Assembly (NCBI GenBank): GCA_963777505.1 | Contig: CAVZQN010000003.1 | Span: forward strand, 192,001-256,000 | Direction of reading: 5' to 3' | From: an uncultured bacterium | GTDB lineage: Bacteria; Acidobacteriota; HRBIN11; JAKEFK01 | Length of the DNA stretch: 64,000 nucleotides | In this document: piece by piece, positions 56,116 to 63,882 of the stretch | How positions within the stretch are numbered: the stretch's first letter is position 1 | Layout of the letters: the number at the start of each line of letters is the position of its first letter | Program-made: the position numbers and the translations under genes | Notes under the pieces: model-generated | Database searches by the model: none | What the model saw: only the letters and a program-made list of their open reading frames with translations | Told to the model about the DNA's origin: nothing

Positions 56116-57294
56116 ATGTCCAAAAACAAGATTATCGTACTCATAGGAACGATACTGATTCTTGCGCTATCTTTCTGGCTATATTCGTCTGCCCGAAACC
56201 AGAAATCGCCAAAATATAAGACTGAGAAGATCGAAAAAGGTGATGTCACTTCAACTGTCACAGCCACCGGGACACTGTCCGCATTAACAACAGTAGCTGT
56301 TGGGAGCCAGGTTTCAGGGATTATTTCCGGTCTTCATGCGGATTTTAATTCTAACGTTAAGAAAGGGCAGCTTCTTGCTGAACTGGATCCAATCTCCTTT
56401 CAAGCAGTAGTGGATCAAAGGAAAGCAGATCTTGCGCGTGTGCAGGCTGAAGAAAGGAACGCACGGCTTGCATACGAGCGTGCAAAAAATCTGCTTGAAA
56501 ATGAATTTATTTCTCGATCTGAATACGACACGTCAGAAGGGAATTGGAAAGCAGCTCAAGCTGCGGTCGCTCAATCAGAAGCATCATTAAAACAAGCCGT
56601 AACAAACCTTTCGTATACACGGATTGTTTCACCGATCGATGGAGTTGTTGTGAACCGCCAGATCGATACAGGCCAGACTGTTGCTGCATCCTTTCAAGCG
56701 CCGACTTTGTTTACGATTGCCCAGGATCTAACAAGGATGCAAGTATCTACGACAGTTGATGAAGCCGATATCGGCAAAATCAAAGTTGGGAAGGATGCGA
56801 CTTTTACAGTCGATGCATTTCCCGACCAGATTTTCAAAGGATCAATTTCGCAGGTACGTCTTTCAAGCACTGTGGTTCAAAATGTTGTGACGTATCCGGT
56901 GCTTATTGATGTGGATAATCCGGATCTTTTGTTAAAACCTGGAATGACTGCGAATGTGAATATCCCGGTTGACACTCGAAATGATGTAATCAAAGTCCCG
57001 AATGCGGCATTACGATTCAAGCCAGATCCTTCAGAAATGGAACAAGGTCCAAAGCCTGGCTCTGAAAAAAGACAAGACAAAAAAACTTCCAGCACAGTTT
57101 ACCGAATTGATGTGACTGGGAAATTAACACCTGTTGTCGTTACAGCTTCTATCACAGATGGTGCATTTACTGCTGTCGAATCTGCAACATTGAAGGCAGG
57201 GGATGAGGTTGTGGTTGGTCTTGCAACTTCGCGTGCTATGGAGCAGCAAGGTGGAGTTCAGCAGCGGCGTTCTCGCGGCGGTCGCGGATTCTAA
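56116..57294 (+). CDS. macA: efflux membrane-fusion (periplasmic adaptor) protein, MacA-like
   Basis: [42 protein letters not shown]. Confidence 0.9.
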
Positions 57295-58091
57295 TGAGCA
57301 GTCAACCAGTGATGGAGATGATAGATCTGAAAAAGGTCTATCGAATGGGTGAAACAGAAGTACACGCGCTTCAGGGCGTTTCTCTGCAAGTACAAAGCGG
57401 TGAGTTTCTTGCGGTTATGGGTGCATCGGGTTCGGGAAAATCAACCCTCATGAATATCATCGGATGTTTGGATCGGCCCACTTCAGGGCAATACATGCTG
57501 GAAGGTGTCAAGGTTTCGTCGTTAGATCGAGATCAGCGTGCTGAAATTCGGAATGACAAAATAGGATTTGTATTTCAGAGTTTTAATTTGCTGCCACGTA
57601 CATCGGCTCTAGAAAATGTGGAACTTCCATTAATCTATTCAACGAAACATCATTTGAATGATATTCAAATGCGGGAACGAGCGAGAGAATGTCTTAATCG
57701 TGTTGGGCTGGAAGGAAGAGGTGATCACGTGCCGAGCCAGCTTTCGGGTGGTCAACAGCAACGCGTCGCAATTGCAAGAGCACTCGTAAATGATCCCGCT
57801 ATTATTCTGGCTGATGAGCCAACAGGGAATTTAGATACCAAAACATCTGAAGAAGTAATGCTGACACTTCAAAAACTAAATGCCGAAGGAAAAACGATCA
57901 TCTTAATAACACACGAACATGACATTGCGAATTTTGCTAAGCGCGTCATTACGTTGCGTGATGGCCTGGTCATTTCTGATATTTTGAATGATACTTCGAG
58001 GCCCGGCCCAGCGGATGCGGGGATCGGGGGCCGGGCCTCTGAGGCCCGGGTCTCACACCCCGCCACCACAGACCCGGGCCTCGACCGATAG
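57294..58091 (+). CDS. ABC ATP-binding subunit, MacB N-domain-like, with a repeat-derived C-terminal tail
   Basis: [38 protein letters not shown]. Confidence 0.95.
57996..58084 (+). repeat. GC-rich double-hairpin (REP-like) insert inside the 3' end of the ATPase gene
   Basis: gaggcccggccc / gggccgggcctc and gaggcccgggtct / agacccgggcctc inverted repeats. Confidence 0.8.
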
Positions 58092-58093
58092 CT

Positions 58094-59323
58094 ATGAACA
58101 AGACGAGTAACACCATAAAAGTTGCTTTTCGTTCAATTGGACGCAATAAATTGCGTTCGATTCTAACGATGCTGGGCATCATTATCGGCGTCGCATGTGT
58201 GATTGCTACGATCGGAATTGGTGAAGGTGCTCGCATGCAGATGGAATCGCAGCTGCGATCACTTGGAACGAACTATCTCATGGTGTTTCCAGGTACGACC
58301 ACATCTTCAGGTGCTCGTTCAGGGTGGGGAACGAATTCAAAACTCAGCGATTCGGATGTTGCTGCGATTCGACAAGAATGCAGCAGTTGTGCTTATGTTT
58401 CGGCTCAGGTTCGTACGGTTGCTCAGATGGTTTATAACAATAAAAATTGGTCCACTTCGGTACAAGGAGTTGAAGTAGATTGGCCGCTCATCCGTACATG
58501 GAATGTTGAAACAGGACAATTTTTCACTGAAGCCGATAATCGTGCGGGCGCAAAAGTTTGCGTCATAGGAAAATCGATTCAAACCGAATTGTTCGGGAAT
58601 GAAGATCCGGTCGGCAAAGTTCTACGCATAAAAAATATTCCATTTCGTGTTATTGGTACGCTTGAAACAAAAGGCGGTTCGATGGTAGGCCAGGATCAAG
58701 ATGATGTAGTTGTTGCGCCATACGAAACCGTGCGGAAAAAATTAATGGGCACGCCTACGCCTGTTGGAATTATTACTGTGTCATCAATGTCGAGTGAAAT
58801 GGTCGAGAATACTGAGCAAGAAATTACCGGCATACTTCGCCAGCGTCATCGTATTAATCCTGACGCAGGTCAGGAAGATGATTTTATGATCCGTTCCCAA
58901 ACAGAGATGCTGGCTCAAGCTGAAATGCAATCCCGTACCTTGAGTATTTTGTTGTGGTCCATTGCGGGCGTTTCGCTGCTTGTAGGTGGAATCGGAATTA
59001 TGAATATTATGCTTGTAAGCGTAACAGAGCGAACCCGCGAAATCGGAATCCGAATGGCAATCGGCGCTAAGGGTAAAGATGTTCGTGCGCAGTTTTTGTT
59101 TGAAGCTATGGTTCTTGCTTTAACTGGCGGTATTCTTGGAATTTTTCTTGGTCTTGGAATTCAAAAGGCTGTCGCGCGCTTTGGTGATTGGCCCGTTTCA
59201 CTTCAGCCTGAAGCTGTTGTTTTAGCTTTCGTATTTTCAGCTCTGGTAGGAATTTTTTTCGGATTCTACCCTGCACAAAAGGCGAGCAGGCTCGATCCGA
59301 TTGAGGCACTCCGTTACGAATAA
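58094..59323 (+). CDS. macB: ABC permease, MacB C-domain-like
   Basis: RNKLRSILTMLGIIIGV, GGIGIMNIMLVSVTERTREIGIRMAIGA, LDPIEALRYE. Confidence 0.9.
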   Translation: MNKTSNTIKVAFRSIGRNKLRSILTMLGIIIGVACVIATIGIGEGARMQMESQLRSLGTNYLMVFPGTTTSSGARSGWGTNSKLSDSDVAAIRQECSSCAYVSAQVRTVAQMVYNNKNWSTSVQGVEVDWPLIRTWNVETGQFFTEADNRAGAKVCVIGKSIQTELFGNEDPVGKVLRIKNIPFRVIGTLETKGGSMVGQDQDDVVVAPYETVRKKLMGTPTPVGIITVSSMSSEMVENTEQEITGILRQRHRINPDAGQEDDFMIRSQTEMLAQAEMQSRTLSILLWSIAGVSLLVGGIGIMNIMLVSVTERTREIGIRMAIGAKGKDVRAQFLFEAMVLALTGGILGIFLGLGIQKAVARFGDWPVSLQPEAVVLAFVFSALVGIFFGFYPAQKASRLDPIEALRYE

Positions 59324-59365: not shown

Positions 59366-60262
59366 ATGGATCGAAGAAACTTCCTAAAAGCTATAACAAT
59401 TTCAGCTGGCTATCTGATTCCAAAATTCTCTGCAATCGCCAGTCCGGAACAGAACACGAAAGCTGTATTCACGCATGTTGTACCGGAGTGGCGCACAATT
59501 TCAAAAGGCCTGCATTTCGCAAGGGTAAAAGTGTTTCGAGAAAACAAGGAAGTGGATTCTGTAGGTGTTATTCGAATCCAGCCGAAGCACAATAAAATCC
59601 GCGTCTTTCATTCTTACGATGAAAAAAATACTATCGTTCGAACGTTAGATGAATGGCAGAAAGAAACCTCTGCTCTTGCCTTGATTAATGCCGCGCAATA
59701 CATGGCGGATCCATACTACAAGCCGTGTGCGCTTGTCATCTGCGATGGAAAACAGAAAGGACCATTGCGGAACAAAAGTGTACGTGGAATGTTCGTATCT
59801 GAACCGTTAAAAAAAGATTTGCCCCACGCAGATTTGCTCGACTTCGATTATGAACAGTTTGATTTAGCATCAAGTTCATATAGTCAAGGGATTCAACATT
59901 GGCCGATCCTGTTAGATCGTGAAGGTAGAATTAAGGTTCAGAAATCTGAGCTGCGAGCAAATCGAACAATCGTTGCAAAGAATTCAGACAATGAAATTCT
60001 TTTCTTTACTACAGAACTGCCTTCGTTTAGTCTTTATAATTTTGGACTCTTCTTAAAAGATAGCAACACGCGATCCGATGGTGGATTTAAAATCCACACT
60101 GCTATGAATATGGATGGCGGAAGAGAAGCAAATATGGTTTTACGTTCTGGTGGTTTTTCTTATTCCTCATGGGATTACAACCCAATGGCGAGCAGTGAAG
60201 GGAGTTCCATTTTGGATTTAAAAGCCAGGCTGCCCGGCGTTATTGGGGTTTTTCCACGATGA
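59366..60262 (+). CDS. phosphodiester glycosidase (NAGPA-like) family protein, Tat-exported
   Basis: MDRRNFLK Tat signal; INAAQY, ANRTIVA, AMNMDGG. Confidence 0.78.
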   Translation: MDRRNFLKAITISAGYLIPKFSAIASPEQNTKAVFTHVVPEWRTISKGLHFARVKVFRENKEVDSVGVIRIQPKHNKIRVFHSYDEKNTIVRTLDEWQKETSALALINAAQYMADPYYKPCALVICDGKQKGPLRNKSVRGMFVSEPLKKDLPHADLLDFDYEQFDLASSSYSQGIQHWPILLDREGRIKVQKSELRANRTIVAKNSDNEILFFTTELPSFSLYNFGLFLKDSNTRSDGGFKIHTAMNMDGGREANMVLRSGGFSYSSWDYNPMASSEGSSILDLKARLPGVIGVFPR

Positions 60263-60864
60263 AAGGAATTTTCTTCCTGTGCTTTTCATTCTTTCTATCG
60301 CTGAGTGCTGATGCAGTCGATTTAAGCCTTAGAAATCTTCAAGGAAAAAAAGAAAGTCTGGAAGATTATCGCGGCAAAATTGTCATATTAAATTTCTGGG
60401 CTACGTGGTGTGTTCCATGCCGTAAAGAGATGCCGTTGTTTGTCGAATTACAAAATGAATATGCCGCGCGCGGTGTGCAATGGATTGCTGTATCGACAGA
60501 TCCTGCTGAATCACGAAAAGAAGTGGACGCTTTTGTAAAGGAGTACAAATTAAATTTTCCGGTGTGGGTCGATGGCACATCCGATCATCAATCATCATTG
60601 AAGCTTGCCACCGGATTGCCGGCTACGTTAATTCTCGATGCCGAAGGCAATCCTCGTTTCCGGATTATTGGTGAATCGACTCGGGAAGCACTGACCGAAC
60701 GCCTTGATTATTTGCTTTTACAAAATAAAGGTCTCGCGCCCGCAGAAATAATCTTGCCGCCAGGTTTAACTCCTGAACACTTCCATGAACACGAAGCAGG
60801 TGAAGAGGAAGATCATGAACATGAGGAAGAAATAGCCGAAGCTGGCTCGGCTGTCCCTTCCTGA
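60259..60864 (+). CDS. TlpA-family thiol-disulfide oxidoreductase domain; likely the N-terminal part of a 386-aa selenoprotein (60259-61419)
   Basis: Signal peptide, LNFWATWCVPCRKEMP, GLPAT; His/Glu-rich tail; ends at an in-frame TGA followed by CCG CTT TGA and an open frame. Confidence 0.9.
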   Translation: MKGIFFLCFSFFLSLSADAVDLSLRNLQGKKESLEDYRGKIVILNFWATWCVPCRKEMPLFVELQNEYAARGVQWIAVSTDPAESRKEVDAFVKEYKLNFPVWVDGTSDHQSSLKLATGLPATLILDAEGNPRFRIIGESTREALTERLDYLLLQNKGLAPAEIILPPGLTPEHFHEHEAGEEEDHEHEEEIAEAGSAVPS

Positions 60865-60887
60865 CCGCTTTGACCAGGCGAAGGCAG

Positions 60888-60906
60888 GGTGATCCGTGGG
60901 ATCGCC
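60888..60906 (+). promoter_or_regulatory. candidate bacterial SECIS hairpin
   Basis: GGUGAUCC-GUG-GGAUCGCC stem-loop; the loop starts with G, 22 nt after TGA 60871-73 and 31 nt after TGA 60862-64. Confidence 0.6.
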
Positions 60907-61419
60907 GGGATCGATAAAAAGAGATGGATCGTTTCATTCCGTTATTTTCCTGAGCTACTTGATCGTGCGAAAGTACGAGCAACCTTGCAATATCGTTTAC
61001 ATTCCAGAATTCTCGTAGGGGTTGAATACAATCCACTCGTAGATGAAGTTGCACCGCTTGCCAACATAACTTTCGTTTCAGAGACTCAACATCTGCCCGC
61101 AATTATTTTGGCAACAAGCACAGATCGTATTGGTACGCCTGATGGTCAGTCAGTCACATTAACTGCCAGCAAAGATTTGGAATCGTGGCTTCATCTGCCA
61201 ATCGCTCCCTACGCAGGCATTACTTATGGCACGTATGAGGATCGATTCAGACCAGTTGGTGGATTGCTCCTGCGCTTTCATCCCAATTTCTATTCATTGA
61301 TTACATTTGATGGCGTTCATGTGCATCCGGTTGTGACCTACAACTATGGCATGCATGCATTTTCTTTTTTACTTTATAAAGGCAAAGAACCAGGCGTCAG
61401 TTACAGCATTCTGTTCTAG
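60889..61419 (+). CDS. beta-barrel-like hypothetical domain, in frame with the upstream TlpA ORF; likely the C-terminal part of the selenoprotein
   Basis: Amphipathic strands (LVGVEYNP, PYAGITY, VSYSILF), terminal Phe, no signal peptide of its own; same frame as 60259. Confidence 0.72.
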   Translation: MIRGIAGIDKKRWIVSFRYFPELLDRAKVRATLQYRLHSRILVGVEYNPLVDEVAPLANITFVSETQHLPAIILATSTDRIGTPDGQSVTLTASKDLESWLHLPIAPYAGITYGTYEDRFRPVGGLLLRFHPNFYSLITFDGVHVHPVVTYNYGMHAFSFLLYKGKEPGVSYSILF

Positions 61420-61436: not shown

Positions 61437-63122
61437 CTACTTTTCACCTGCAGCAGTAAATACAGGTGCAATGTCTGTTGGAATATCTTTCAAGCCTTCA
61501 GTTACGCGATTGATCTCATCGTTCGTTACACCGTATTTTTCAACAAGCCTGGTTGCACGATCAAAATCACCGGTCGCTTCAATCATCAGCAGTTCATTGG
61601 AAAGGGATTCAACAGCCGTTCGCATTTTTGCTATATCGACCTTGTAATGCTTGTCTGAAGTTGGAACGATCGCACCTTTTTCCCGGAACCAGTTCCACTG
61701 AATTGCAGTTCCTCTGCCATGAGCTTCGTTAATGCCAAATCGCATACTTCGATAGAGCAGTCCTGCATTCGTAATGAAAAGAGTTTCAGCATCAAAAGTA
61801 GACAGGAGCTTTTTATCCATTGCATACAATAAATTCCAAACTCCAAGTACATCTGCTTTGGCTTCTTCGATCGTTGAGTATAAATTTTTCAGCAATAACC
61901 TTGCTTCAACACGTTTGCCATCAGCTCCTTTGATTAAGCCAGGTCCAAGGCCATGCGAAAGTTCATGAAACAAAACATGATTAAAATAAGCATCGAAAGA
62001 AATTCTTGATGCTTGTGAAGGATCAATCAGACGCTCTGCAATGGGCTTACCGGATTGTTTGAATTTTGCTTCCATGACATTTTTCAACAGCACATTCTTG
62101 AAGCCTTTCTTTTCACGGACCTGTTCGTCATTCGGTAAGTTAAATGCAGATGTCTGTACGCCGGCTCTCGCATCTCCAGCAGTGTAAATTTCCTGAACTA
62201 TTTTTAGCGCGGTTGATGAACCACGATTTGGATTTTTATGTTCGTCCGGAATCGGAAGATTCCGTTCCATATCGGATAAGTGTTTTAGATAAATTGCGAG
62301 GCTTTCACTTTCTTTTTGATCAACAACCGTAATGTAGGATGCGTAAGCCGCTTTGTAGTTGAATAGATTGTCTTCATAAACCTCGTAGGGCCCAATAACG
62401 ACTTCGATTGGTGAATCCAAATCAATCCATGCAAAATCACTTGCAGAATAATCGTCATTCAAAAATGCATCAGCCCGTTTTGTTAAATAATCTTTTAACG
62501 AAGCATTCGATGTAAGTTGTGCTGCCTGCCGTAATTTTTTTACAACAGTTTCAATATCTTTTGCGTAATATTGATGATACGGAATCGCGTTTAACTTAGA
62601 GTTCTCCCTGCGAATGACCGTAAAGAGACCATGAAAAGCGTCCTGATCTTCAGGATGCGCTTTCACCCATTTTTCAAACTCTTCTTTTGTCATATCTTCA
62701 GGATAAAATGCCGCTCCTGGCGGTTTTTCTCCTTTCTCTCCAAAAGGTGCAATAAATGGCTTGTCTTCTTCCAATCGATTCCATCTGCCTTTCATCAAGT
62801 CAAAAAGTTCCAAAGCCTGATTGTATTGATGAGATTTGCTCAGCGATTGAAGAGTTTGGCGAAGTTCGATGTTCTTTTCTGAAACCTGTTTGTAAAAGAG
62901 CAGGTCAATTGTTTTCGAAGCCTCAATCAAAATTGCGACGACTTTCTTCTCTTCTTCATTCAGAAGGCTGCGATCATAATCGATAACGGTTCTCGGAAAT
63001 TTTTTCAGTACTTCCGGTATTTCTTGAGATACCTCAAGGGATGGTGATTGTGCAATAGCGGCGGAATTAAATGCCAATAATAAAACAAGAAGTATTCTCA
63101 GAATTTGTTGCCTAAGTTTCAT
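61437..63122 (-). CDS. peptidase M49 / dipeptidyl-peptidase III-like zinc peptidase
   Basis: Signal peptide, FYP.DMTKEEF, IGPYEVYED, AFNLPND, HELSHGLGP, EEAKAD. Confidence 0.9.
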   Translation of the reverse strand: MKLRQQILRILLVLLLAFNSAAIAQSPSLEVSQEIPEVLKKFPRTVIDYDRSLLNEEEKKVVAILIEASKTIDLLFYKQVSEKNIELRQTLQSLSKSHQYNQALELFDLMKGRWNRLEEDKPFIAPFGEKGEKPPGAAFYPEDMTKEEFEKWVKAHPEDQDAFHGLFTVIRRENSKLNAIPYHQYYAKDIETVVKKLRQAAQLTSNASLKDYLTKRADAFLNDDYSASDFAWIDLDSPIEVVIGPYEVYEDNLFNYKAAYASYITVVDQKESESLAIYLKHLSDMERNLPIPDEHKNPNRGSSTALKIVQEIYTAGDARAGVQTSAFNLPNDEQVREKKGFKNVLLKNVMEAKFKQSGKPIAERLIDPSQASRISFDAYFNHVLFHELSHGLGPGLIKGADGKRVEARLLLKNLYSTIEEAKADVLGVWNLLYAMDKKLLSTFDAETLFITNAGLLYRSMRFGINEAHGRGTAIQWNWFREKGAIVPTSDKHYKVDIAKMRTAVESLSNELLMIEATGDFDRATRLVEKYGVTNDEINRVTEGLKDIPTDIAPVFTAAGEK

Positions 63123-63333: not shown

Positions 63334-63882
63334 ATGAAAACATCAAGTTGTGTAATTTTATTGCTTACGTTATGGCTTCCAGCGATTTCATTTGGGCAGG
63401 CACAAACGACTCCTGAAGCGGGGAGATTTAAGGTTGATCTTCTGAAACAAATTGAAGATGTAGAGAAGAAGCTTGTGAGCCTTGCAGAGGCGTTTCCGAC
63501 TGAGAAGTTTTCCTGGCGTCCGGGGGACGGTGTGCGTTCAGTGAGCGAAGTATTGATGCATATCGCTGGTGGAAATTATTTACTACCGAGTATGGCAGGG
63601 GTCACACCGCCGCCTGGGATTTCACGTGATATGGAAAAGACTGTAACCGAGAAACCAAAGGTAATAGAAACCCTTAAACAATCGTTCGTTCATTTACGCC
63701 AAGCGGTTGAGAAGACATCTGATTCCGATTTCGATCGAGGCATTAAATTTTTTGGCGATGATGCGACGGTGCGTTACGTTTATATGGTTGCGGCCGCACA
63801 CGGCAATGAACACCTTGGGCAATCAATTGCTTACGCGCGAATCAATGGAATCACGCCACCCTGGTCAGCTGCTGAAAACTAA
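63334..63882 (+). CDS. secreted DinB/YfiT-family protein
   Basis: Signal peptide, WRPG.GVRSVSEVLMHIA, H..EHLGQ.IAYAR.NGI.PPWS. Confidence 0.9.
   Translation: MKTSSCVILLLTLWLPAISFGQAQTTPEAGRFKVDLLKQIEDVEKKLVSLAEAFPTEKFSWRPGDGVRSVSEVLMHIAGGNYLLPSMAGVTPPPGISRDMEKTVTEKPKVIETLKQSFVHLRQAVEKTSDSDFDRGIKFFGDDATVRYVYMVAAAHGNEHLGQSIAYARINGITPPWSAAEN

Follow-up and report, generated by a model that had tools for sequence, protein, structure and literature searches.

The genetic and architectural core of this study is that, within a 64,000-nucleotide stretch of DNA from an uncultured acidobacterium (C3:192001-256000 of its genome; the whole stretch is called the window below), the region 60259..61419 on the + strand is very probably one gene, encoding an exported protein of 386 amino acids (aa) that would carry two selenocysteines (Sec, U) and end in an outer-membrane beta-barrel. 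The reading frame comprises 386 codons, two of which are in-frame TGA, and closes with a terminal TAG at 61417-61419. The protein would belong to a widespread family of double-Sec outer-membrane proteins that is apparently undescribed.

Reading frame and domain architecture

The two open reading frames (ORFs) involved, 60259-60864 (201 aa) and 60889-61419 (176 aa), lie in one common frame, and the frame from 60259 to 61419 is interrupted solely by TGA codons at 60862-60864 and 60871-60873, which have the spacing of a Cys-x-x-Cys pair, just as an earlier note on this DNA had described them. The junction reads GCT GTC CCT TCC TGA CCG CTT TGA CCA GGC GAA GGC AGG GTG, and translation with TGA as U gives AVPS-U-PL-U-PGEGR within a product of 386 residues, in agreement with the proposal in the same note of a single 386-aa protein with Sec202 and Sec205; the frame is kept in homologues. 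The putative Sec202-Pro-Leu-Sec205 motif (TGA CCG CTT TGA, 60862..60873, +), assigned from homologous junctions and from Cys in distant relatives, is followed by codons for Pro-Gly-Glu-Gly-Arg (60874..60888, +; read with the codon table), which fill the interval from the second TGA (TGA2) to the supposed GTG start of the downstream ORF.

The protein begins with a signal peptide (MKGIFFLCFSFFLSLSADA, 60259..60315, +), its sole export signal, which was judged by eye from the sequence as a hydrophobic leader. The TlpA/ResA-like thioredoxin-fold domain that follows (60310..60687, +; Pfam) has the active site WCVPC, with Cys51-Val-Pro-Cys54 at 60409-60420. The N-terminal part matched AhpC-TSA (PF00578; 92.2 bits, cut-off 26, E 3e-26) and Redoxin (PF08534; 75.7 bits, cut-off 26.6, E 4e-21) in Pfam, and stayed under the cut-offs of the NCBIfam TlpA equivalog (NF047696; 89.3 bits, cut-off 230) and of ResA (NF002854; 109.9 bits, cut-off 170); by these scores the domain is TlpA-like and not a named orthologue. 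A His/Glu-rich linker (PEHFHEHEAGEEEDHEHEEE, 60772..60831, +), with five His and many Glu, precedes the Sec motif. After the motif come a hairpin resembling a selenocysteine insertion sequence (SECIS), GUGAUCC-GUG-GGAUCGC (60889..60905, +), which was recognized from covariation in homologues, and a predicted 12-stranded outer-membrane beta-barrel domain (60925..61416, +), which was assigned from an AlphaFold2 (AF2) model and structural matches and whose last residue is Phe. The last 176 residues, corresponding to the downstream ORF, matched no Pfam or NCBIfam family.

Conservation of the two TGA codons

In a sample of 401 genomes from across the phylum Acidobacteriota, 31 had the barrel domain, and junctions were read in 30 of the 31 carriers, G063 being left out as a copy in two fragments without a locus. 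The 30 include one unpublished genome, G058, and none of the conclusions rests solely on that genome. TGA-x-x-TGA was in frame at all 30 homologous junctions, with the consensus [V/A]-P-[S/A/N/T]-U-[P/S]-x-U-P-G-E-G, and the read-through protein gave full-length matches with two internal TGA codons in three other genomes, at 41-56% identity. A collection of species genomes (one genome per species) contained at least 540 stretches encoding a relative. The best 80 of these at least 540 loci were inspected; they overlap with the first 30 junctions (for example, L112 is contig G327:C18) and come nearly all from Pyrinomonadaceae, Blastocatellia or Acidobacteriota metagenome-assembled genomes (MAGs). 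TGA/TGA was found in 79 of the 80, L102 alone having TGC/TGA (Cys-Pro-Leu-Sec); locus L147, read by hand, has PGES in place of PGEG. Since 30 of 30 and 79 of 80 cases show the two TGA codons at the same spacing and in the same frame, the pattern is, at the level of sequence, far beyond chance. The expectation that homologues would show TGA or Cys at both positions was thus borne out, with Cys/Sec occurring once and CxxC in distant relatives. The copy in G006 (L024) has a frameshift within the barrel and that in G063 is broken into two fragments; these copies are either decaying genes or assembly errors in incomplete MAGs. In G293 the N-terminal part is damaged.

The codons around the motif also behave as translated sequence. 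Across the 30 junctions, the Ser before the first TGA (TGA1) is written TCN in ten genomes and AGY in 14, the residues P-G-E-G after TGA2 are invariant while being encoded by 4, 4, 2 and 4 different codons (positions 1 and 2 invariant, third positions with two to four bases), and the following Arg is written AGG or CGN. This codon usage shows selection on amino acids, not on bases, across the nominally intergenic stretch.

These observations bear directly on whether the region could instead hold two separate genes, with TlpA ending at TGA1 and the barrel made from the GTG at 60889 or by re-initiation, which we regard as exceedingly improbable. It is true that every public record calls the barrel in this way: the 120 proteins among the matches listed are fragments, 140-185 aa in length, whose first residue lies past the motif, those with names being called 'hypothetical protein'. 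A search with this query for proteins of 309-2000 aa gave none, which is weak evidence; the exhaustive profile search described below did give fused Cys forms. Such records of barrel fragments are also what the earlier note had foreseen, namely that standard pipelines would split the gene. However, GTG occurs at the supposed start codon in only two of the 30 genomes, and the first in-frame ATG, GTG or TTG after TGA2 lies anywhere from codon 5 to codon 78; in 16 of the 30 genomes it does not occur before codon 23, which puts it near the onset of barrel strand 1 or past it. A separately made barrel would have no signal peptide: as had been noted before, the downstream ORF (60889-61419) is without one, and the hydrophobic leader lies upstream of the TGA codons in every homologue architecture. 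Neither a conserved start nor a leader of its own was therefore found for the downstream ORF. The 'intergenic' codons are kept as amino acids via synonymous changes, the Cys-x-x-Cys homologues are single proteins, and the minimal forms in G193 and G175 have only a leader and a short linker before the motif; a stop at TGA in these two would therefore yield just a leader peptide in place of a mature protein, together with a barrel lacking an export signal.

Decoding of TGA and the Cys counterparts

The genome of which the window is part was searched for the Sec machinery, and all four genes named in the earlier note (selA, selB, selC and selD) were found: tRNA-Sec with the anticodon TCA (69.6 bits; ARAGORN), SelB (400 bits), SelA (565 bits) and SelD. 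The latter is a selenoprotein itself, with an in-frame TGA at the canonical ...KSGG-U-AGK (KSGG-TGA-AGK; locus L017, G000:C1:410139-411071, - strand). SelA was found in 31 of 31 genomes carrying the barrel gene, compared with 300 of 401 in the phylum sample; as relatives are not independent, this co-occurrence is consistent with Sec insertion rather than a test of it. The ORF just upstream of the gene stops with TGA (60260-60262) and 19 of the 30 family genes terminate in TGA, from which it follows, on codon usage, that TGA is not reassigned in these genomes.

The Cys counterparts of the family were identified in an exhaustive profile search with a 28-sequence alignment (A3), which gave 309 representatives at E <= 0.001, the best 150 of which were inspected. 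About 137 of these 150 start after the motif, as gene callers make them do when a TGA lies upstream. Ten have Cys-x-x-Cys at the motif, nine in the form [A/P]-T-C-A-G-C-A-G/A-E-A-R/K and the tenth (P0125) as VPSCALCPSP; one has Cys-x-x-Trp (P0161) and two have neither Cys. Cys is thus the commonest replacement at both Sec columns. Alignment of A3 with P0189 by hhalign (probability 99.7%, E 3.6e-26) paired AVPS-C-PL-C-PGEGR with MAPT-C-AG-C-AGEAR, placing Cys on both Sec columns; P0189 is a protein of 411 aa, and its cluster includes a 'YHS domain-containing protein [Armatimonadota bacterium]'. True selenoprotein families usually show just such Sec/Cys pairing in alignments. The long Cys-type homologues contain YHS/TRASH metal-binding domains (E 2e-12 to 5e-18), with at least two such stretches each in P0183 and P0189 and one in P0205. 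An Atlas search returned only unnamed beta-barrel clusters from Acidobacteriota and Armatimonadota.

The same fused protein would arise without Sec if a near-cognate tRNA (for Trp, Cys, Arg or Gly) suppressed the UGA codons or if TGA served as a sense codon. Trp is found at the second position in P0161 (CxxW) and P0158 (TxxW), and TGG is one base from TGA. Such decoding is nevertheless very unlikely, given that TGA terminates the majority of family genes and the upstream ORF of the window, that SelA is present in every carrier, that Cys and not Trp prevails at both columns, and that a conserved structured element follows the codons.

The SECIS-like hairpin

In the 30-junction alignment (A2), the hairpin at 60889-60905 consists of a stem of 7 base pairs (columns 28-34 and 38-44) with a G-N-G loop, and the stem begins 15 nucleotides (nt) past UGA2 and 24 nt past UGA1. 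This spacing fits the bSECISearch window, 16-37 nt to the apical loop. Pairing in the cells of the hairpin is 89%, compared with 80.1% in shuffles (none of 500 as high), 18 cells are altered on both sides of the stem, and pairing falls to 20-59% in slid controls in which the partner was moved by 1-3 columns. The columns that covary fall within codons for Ile/Val and Ile/Thr, with I-R-G-I becoming V-R-G-T as A-U becomes G-C. The hairpin that the earlier note had seen after the TGA codons is therefore present, with covariation in its favour and folding energy not.

Several observations weigh against a SECIS role for this element. The folding energy of the 111-nt junction is ordinary (z = -0.14, 200 shuffles), for which reason the support for the hairpin is drawn from covariation. 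Rfam at E <= 10 gave four chance-level matches and no SECIS family on 60780-61000. Six of the 30 genomes (G249, G044, G072, G200, G179 and G058, with the protein sequence R-A-V-S-G-A-G) are off the main register and have another GC-rich hairpin 10 nt after UGA2, with variation too small to test. A single hairpin would, moreover, have to serve two UGA codons 9 nt apart. Finally, a scan of the genome itself for in-frame stops followed 8-30 nt later by a UCC-GNN-GGA hairpin, with TAA and TAG as controls, gave eight hits for TGA versus five for TAA and two for TAG, i.e. no enrichment, SelD alone being convincing. The SelD hairpin, AGUCC-GGU-GGACU, lies 12 nt after its UGA and has the same apical shape as that of the gene described here; as the genome scan found no enrichment, this likeness is an anecdote.

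With these points taken into account, the sequence data support the reading that SelB and tRNA-Sec, guided by the hairpin just downstream, decode both UGA codons as Sec. The product would consist, in order, of the signal peptide, the TlpA-like CxxC domain, the His/Glu linker, the Sec-Pro-Leu-Sec-Pro-Gly-Glu-Gly loop and the 12-stranded barrel. Where Sec insertion fails, a 201-aa periplasmic TlpA protein alone would be made, and the barrel would reach the envelope only via the read-through product.

Structure of the C-terminal barrel

The AF2 model calculated from alignment A3 has a predicted local distance difference test (pLDDT) score of 90.1 and a predicted template-modelling (pTM) score of 0.84. 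It contains 12 strands by DSSP, from model residue 30 to the end, and has a pLDDT of about 80 in the region of the motif. On this model, the C-terminal 164 residues are confidently predicted to form a 12-stranded outer-membrane beta-barrel, in line with the beta-barrel expected in the earlier note, and the superpositions place it among outer-membrane barrels at Z scores of 13-16. The best VIA-align match was the COG4313 channel (4rl8; Z 15.9, root-mean-square deviation 2.8 Å, 165 residues aligned), followed by the EstA autotransporter barrel, KdgM and FapF (each Z 15.3), NanC (Z 13.3) and a designed 12-stranded barrel (Z 12.7); Foldseek matched FapF and designed transmembrane barrels. A profile search of solved structures with A3 gave two chance-level matches only. 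Outer-membrane barrels usually end in Phe or Trp, and one of the two is the last residue in 26 of the 28 aligned rows, the other two rows being misaligned or having a short tail. Many charged residues of the barrel are invariant in the alignment.

The Sec loop sits 18 residues ahead of strand 1. A barrel with an even number of strands has its two termini on the periplasmic side, so the Sec pair would be located either in the lumen or at the mouth that opens to the periplasm.

Partner domains and neighbouring genes

The TlpA-like domain is fused upstream of the motif in 23 of the 30 homologues, to which the damaged copy in G293 may be added. Five of the six forms without a fused TlpA domain (G215, G112, G050, G175 and G340) have an adjoining gene for a Redoxin/AhpC-TSA protein that contains a YHS domain, so that 29 of the 30 genomes have an AhpC-TSA/Redoxin-type thiol reductase either fused to the barrel protein or encoded next to it. 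Eleven of the 30 homologues have a His-rich linker (at least four His in the 50 residues before the first Sec), four a weak YHS-like domain and two a bare leader. NF041384, the model of a YHS-domain selenoprotein, reached at best 14.6 bits against a cut-off of 70, and this only with the YHS-like part of the G112 form. Ten of the 30 members, and most Pyrinomonadaceae loci, carry between the signal peptide and TlpA a domain of about 110 aa with an invariant C-x-x-C-W-x-E-x-D-R and a third invariant Cys (e.g. L048:2533-2907, - strand; alignment A5, with 44 other loci). This Cys-rich N-terminal domain matched no Pfam family and, with the A5 profile, no solved structure at E <= 1.

Neighbourhoods were surveyed at 18 loci (110 ORFs, 4.2 kb on each side), and some of them include genes with a connection to metals, a hint of a metal role. 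A CDF cation-efflux gene adjoins in two of the 18 (G327 and G200); the G200 neighbourhood also contains a multicopper oxidase and an OEP gene, and that of G327 contains DUF305, DUF3347 and DsbB. ChrA/ChrB are found near the G095 locus. G072 and G044 have PCYCGC (PF13798) and DUF4198 genes upstream on the same strand (L073:10324-10827 and L079:9837-10352, - strand). PF13798 is listed as a selenoprotein family in other bacteria in the accessible part of a review (PMC13188914).

Proposed function

Soft-metal handling is the most likely function of the family, a reading by analogy that we put forward tentatively. It is based on the copper-associated YHS domains, the His linkers, the C-P-x-C-P-G motif, which resembles a metal knuckle, the precedent of UxxU in HMA-type proteins and the PcoB-like architecture. 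The fused or adjacent TlpA-like reductase may keep the selenol pair reduced in the oxidizing periplasm. The two selenolates would then bind a soft metal, Cu(I) being the first candidate, which they would receive from the His linker, the Cys-rich N-terminal domain or YHS, and the metal would be passed to or through the barrel. A parallel exists in rhizobia, where the periplasmic reductase TlpA keeps the metal-binding Cys pair of ScoI and CoxB reduced for copper; here the client would be a Sec pair on the same polypeptide.

A number of findings count against a role in metal handling. P0134 (Rohdeia mirabilis, Planctomycetota; L..V) and P0158 (T..W) have a leader and lack both Cys, and since these two have neither Cys nor Sec, the barrel, judged by its sequences, can exist without the reactive pair. 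The YHS matches in Sec-type proteins are under the Pfam cut-off. PcoB (7pge) is among the structural matches at Z 8.2, which is weak and within the range that the tool calls common. No redoxin is encoded in the 4.2 kb flanking the G193 gene on each side. Most neighbourhoods are not metal-related, with YchF, POT and peptidases elsewhere, and the context in the window consists of a MacAB-type exporter, an NAGPA-like gene and an M49-like peptidase.

Alternatively, the Sec pair could be a redox centre, a Sec-Pro-x-Sec diselenide cycling with its selenols, in an envelope peroxidase, a disulfide/diselenide reductase or a carrier of electrons outward; the fused TlpA domain would re-reduce the pair and be fed from the inner membrane by a CcdA/DsbD-type protein. 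This is possible but, in our judgement, rather unlikely, and the rest of the probability falls to other functions. DsbA and glutaredoxin have C-P-x-C as their classic redox motif, the UxxU of selenoprotein L forms a diselenide, the reductase of the AhpC-TSA/Redoxin type is an almost constant companion, and the G048 neighbourhood contains a 1-Cys peroxiredoxin and a CMD-family gene. Most of the bacterial selenoproteins listed in the accessible part of one review are redox proteins (PMC9312934). On the other side, the motif lies outside any thioredoxin fold, the varying accessory modules (His linker, YHS and Cys-rich domain) resemble metal binders and not redox partners, a diselenide is thermodynamically a poor substrate for a TlpA-type reductase, and the conserved 12-stranded barrel with its many invariant charged residues would be left unexplained.

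A more speculative extension, which we consider doubtful, is that the Sec loop lies in the lumen and serves as a plug or selectivity filter, which would be the first selenium-based transport or relay device in an outer membrane. Through the TlpA reductase, the inner membrane would control whether the loop holds two selenolates, a diselenide or a bound metal, and selenium chemistry would gate Cu(I), Ag(I), Hg(II) or reducing equivalents across the outer membrane. If this is true, the near-absence of Cys substitution in Acidobacteriota (one of 80 loci, at one position) would mean that these bacteria cannot do without the chemistry of Sec at this site. Surface display of the TlpA domain in the manner of an autotransporter was also considered and is less likely, as the unfused redoxin is apparently periplasmic and needs an inner-membrane electron donor.

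Comparison with known systems

Returning to soft-metal handling, the closest precedent for the motif is NF041115, an HMA-type 'putative mercuric reductase', in which likewise two Sec residues at CxxC spacing replace a soft-metal Cys pair; UxxU is named as a metal-binding motif in these selenoproteins in the accessible part of one review (PMC13188914). The NF041115 proteins are small and HMA-fold, whereas the motif described here would form a free-standing loop ahead of an outer-membrane barrel, and NF041115 was not matched among the NCBIfam hits at E <= 0.1 or 0.05. Selenoproteins of the peroxiredoxin (Prx)-like/TlpA family (PF00578, with UxxC/UxxU or UGC) likewise have an exported AhpC-TSA/TlpA fold and are usually split at the TGA, but carry Sec in the thioredoxin active site; in the present protein this site is Cys-Val-Pro-Cys and the Sec pair would come some 150 residues later. 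The comparison with selenoprotein L made in the earlier note holds for the Sec-x-x-Sec spacing and otherwise is an analogy only, as the motif of selenoprotein L is a thioredoxin-fold active site, whereas UxxU lies here outside the thioredoxin fold, whose CxxC stays Cys; NF040769, which is related to selenoprotein L, reached 18.3 bits against a cut-off of 120, with the TlpA domain only.

As regards architecture, in PcoB/CopB too a small outer-membrane barrel comes after an N-terminal region that binds metal and is partly disordered, but there is no sequence-family match to them, and the barrel has no Pfam family. PcoB uses Met/His, not Sec. The COG4313 channel, KdgM/NanC, autotransporter translocators and FapF share the fold and size of our barrel (Z 13.3-15.9, root-mean-square deviation 2.5-3.2 Å over 151-167 residues), with 6-13% identity to it, and none of them has an N-terminal Sec or Cys pair.

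Selenoproteins are rare and mostly cytoplasmic redox enzymes. The accessible portions of two reviews (PMC13188914, PMC9312934) record UxxU only in Prx-like oxidoreductases, the HMA-type metal binder NF041115 and FmdB-family proteins, and the only outer-membrane barrel selenoprotein that they contain is the unrelated MtrB/PioB type. Neither Pfam nor NCBIfam release 20 contains a model that covers the motif together with the barrel, which agrees with the earlier surmise that the family could be undescribed. No description was found in full-text literature searches on UxxU and on acidobacterial or outer-membrane barrel/YHS selenoproteins, and the deep-Sep paper mentions none of barrel, TlpA, UxxU and YHS. 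A search of sequencing runs for the sequence returned no RNA run, and the DNA runs contained at most 0.20 of its words.

The family would place two selenocysteines on an outer-membrane barrel and is common in soil Acidobacteriota, as the at least 540 stretches indicate. Its recognition would correct annotation in hundreds of genomes and enlarge the prokaryotic selenoproteome by one family. The existence of Sec and natural Cys forms of one protein would make it a tractable system for asking why selenium is used over sulfur in an oxidizing periplasm, and would link the availability of selenium in soil to metal or redox homeostasis of the envelope in a dominant soil phylum.

Genomic context in the window

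Directly upstream, on the + strand, the window contains a MacA/MacB-type tripartite ABC exporter (56116-59323) made up of an HlyD-family adaptor, an ATPase and a MacB_PCD/FtsX permease, the ATPase ORF (57294-58091) being named by eye only. The ORF between the exporter and the selenoprotein gene (59366-60262, +; 298 aa) has a weak match to NAGPA (phosphodiester glycosidase; E 4e-9). The TGA that ends this ORF and the start codon of the selenoprotein gene overlap as ATGA at 60259-60262, and because of this overlap the sequence suggests co-transcription and translational coupling of the two; the NAGPA-like neighbour is not conserved in other genomes. On the - strand, and converging on the gene, lies a secreted M49-like peptidase with a DUF6887 region (61437-63122), which is followed on the + strand by a DinB-superfamily protein with a signal-peptide-like leader (63334-63882).

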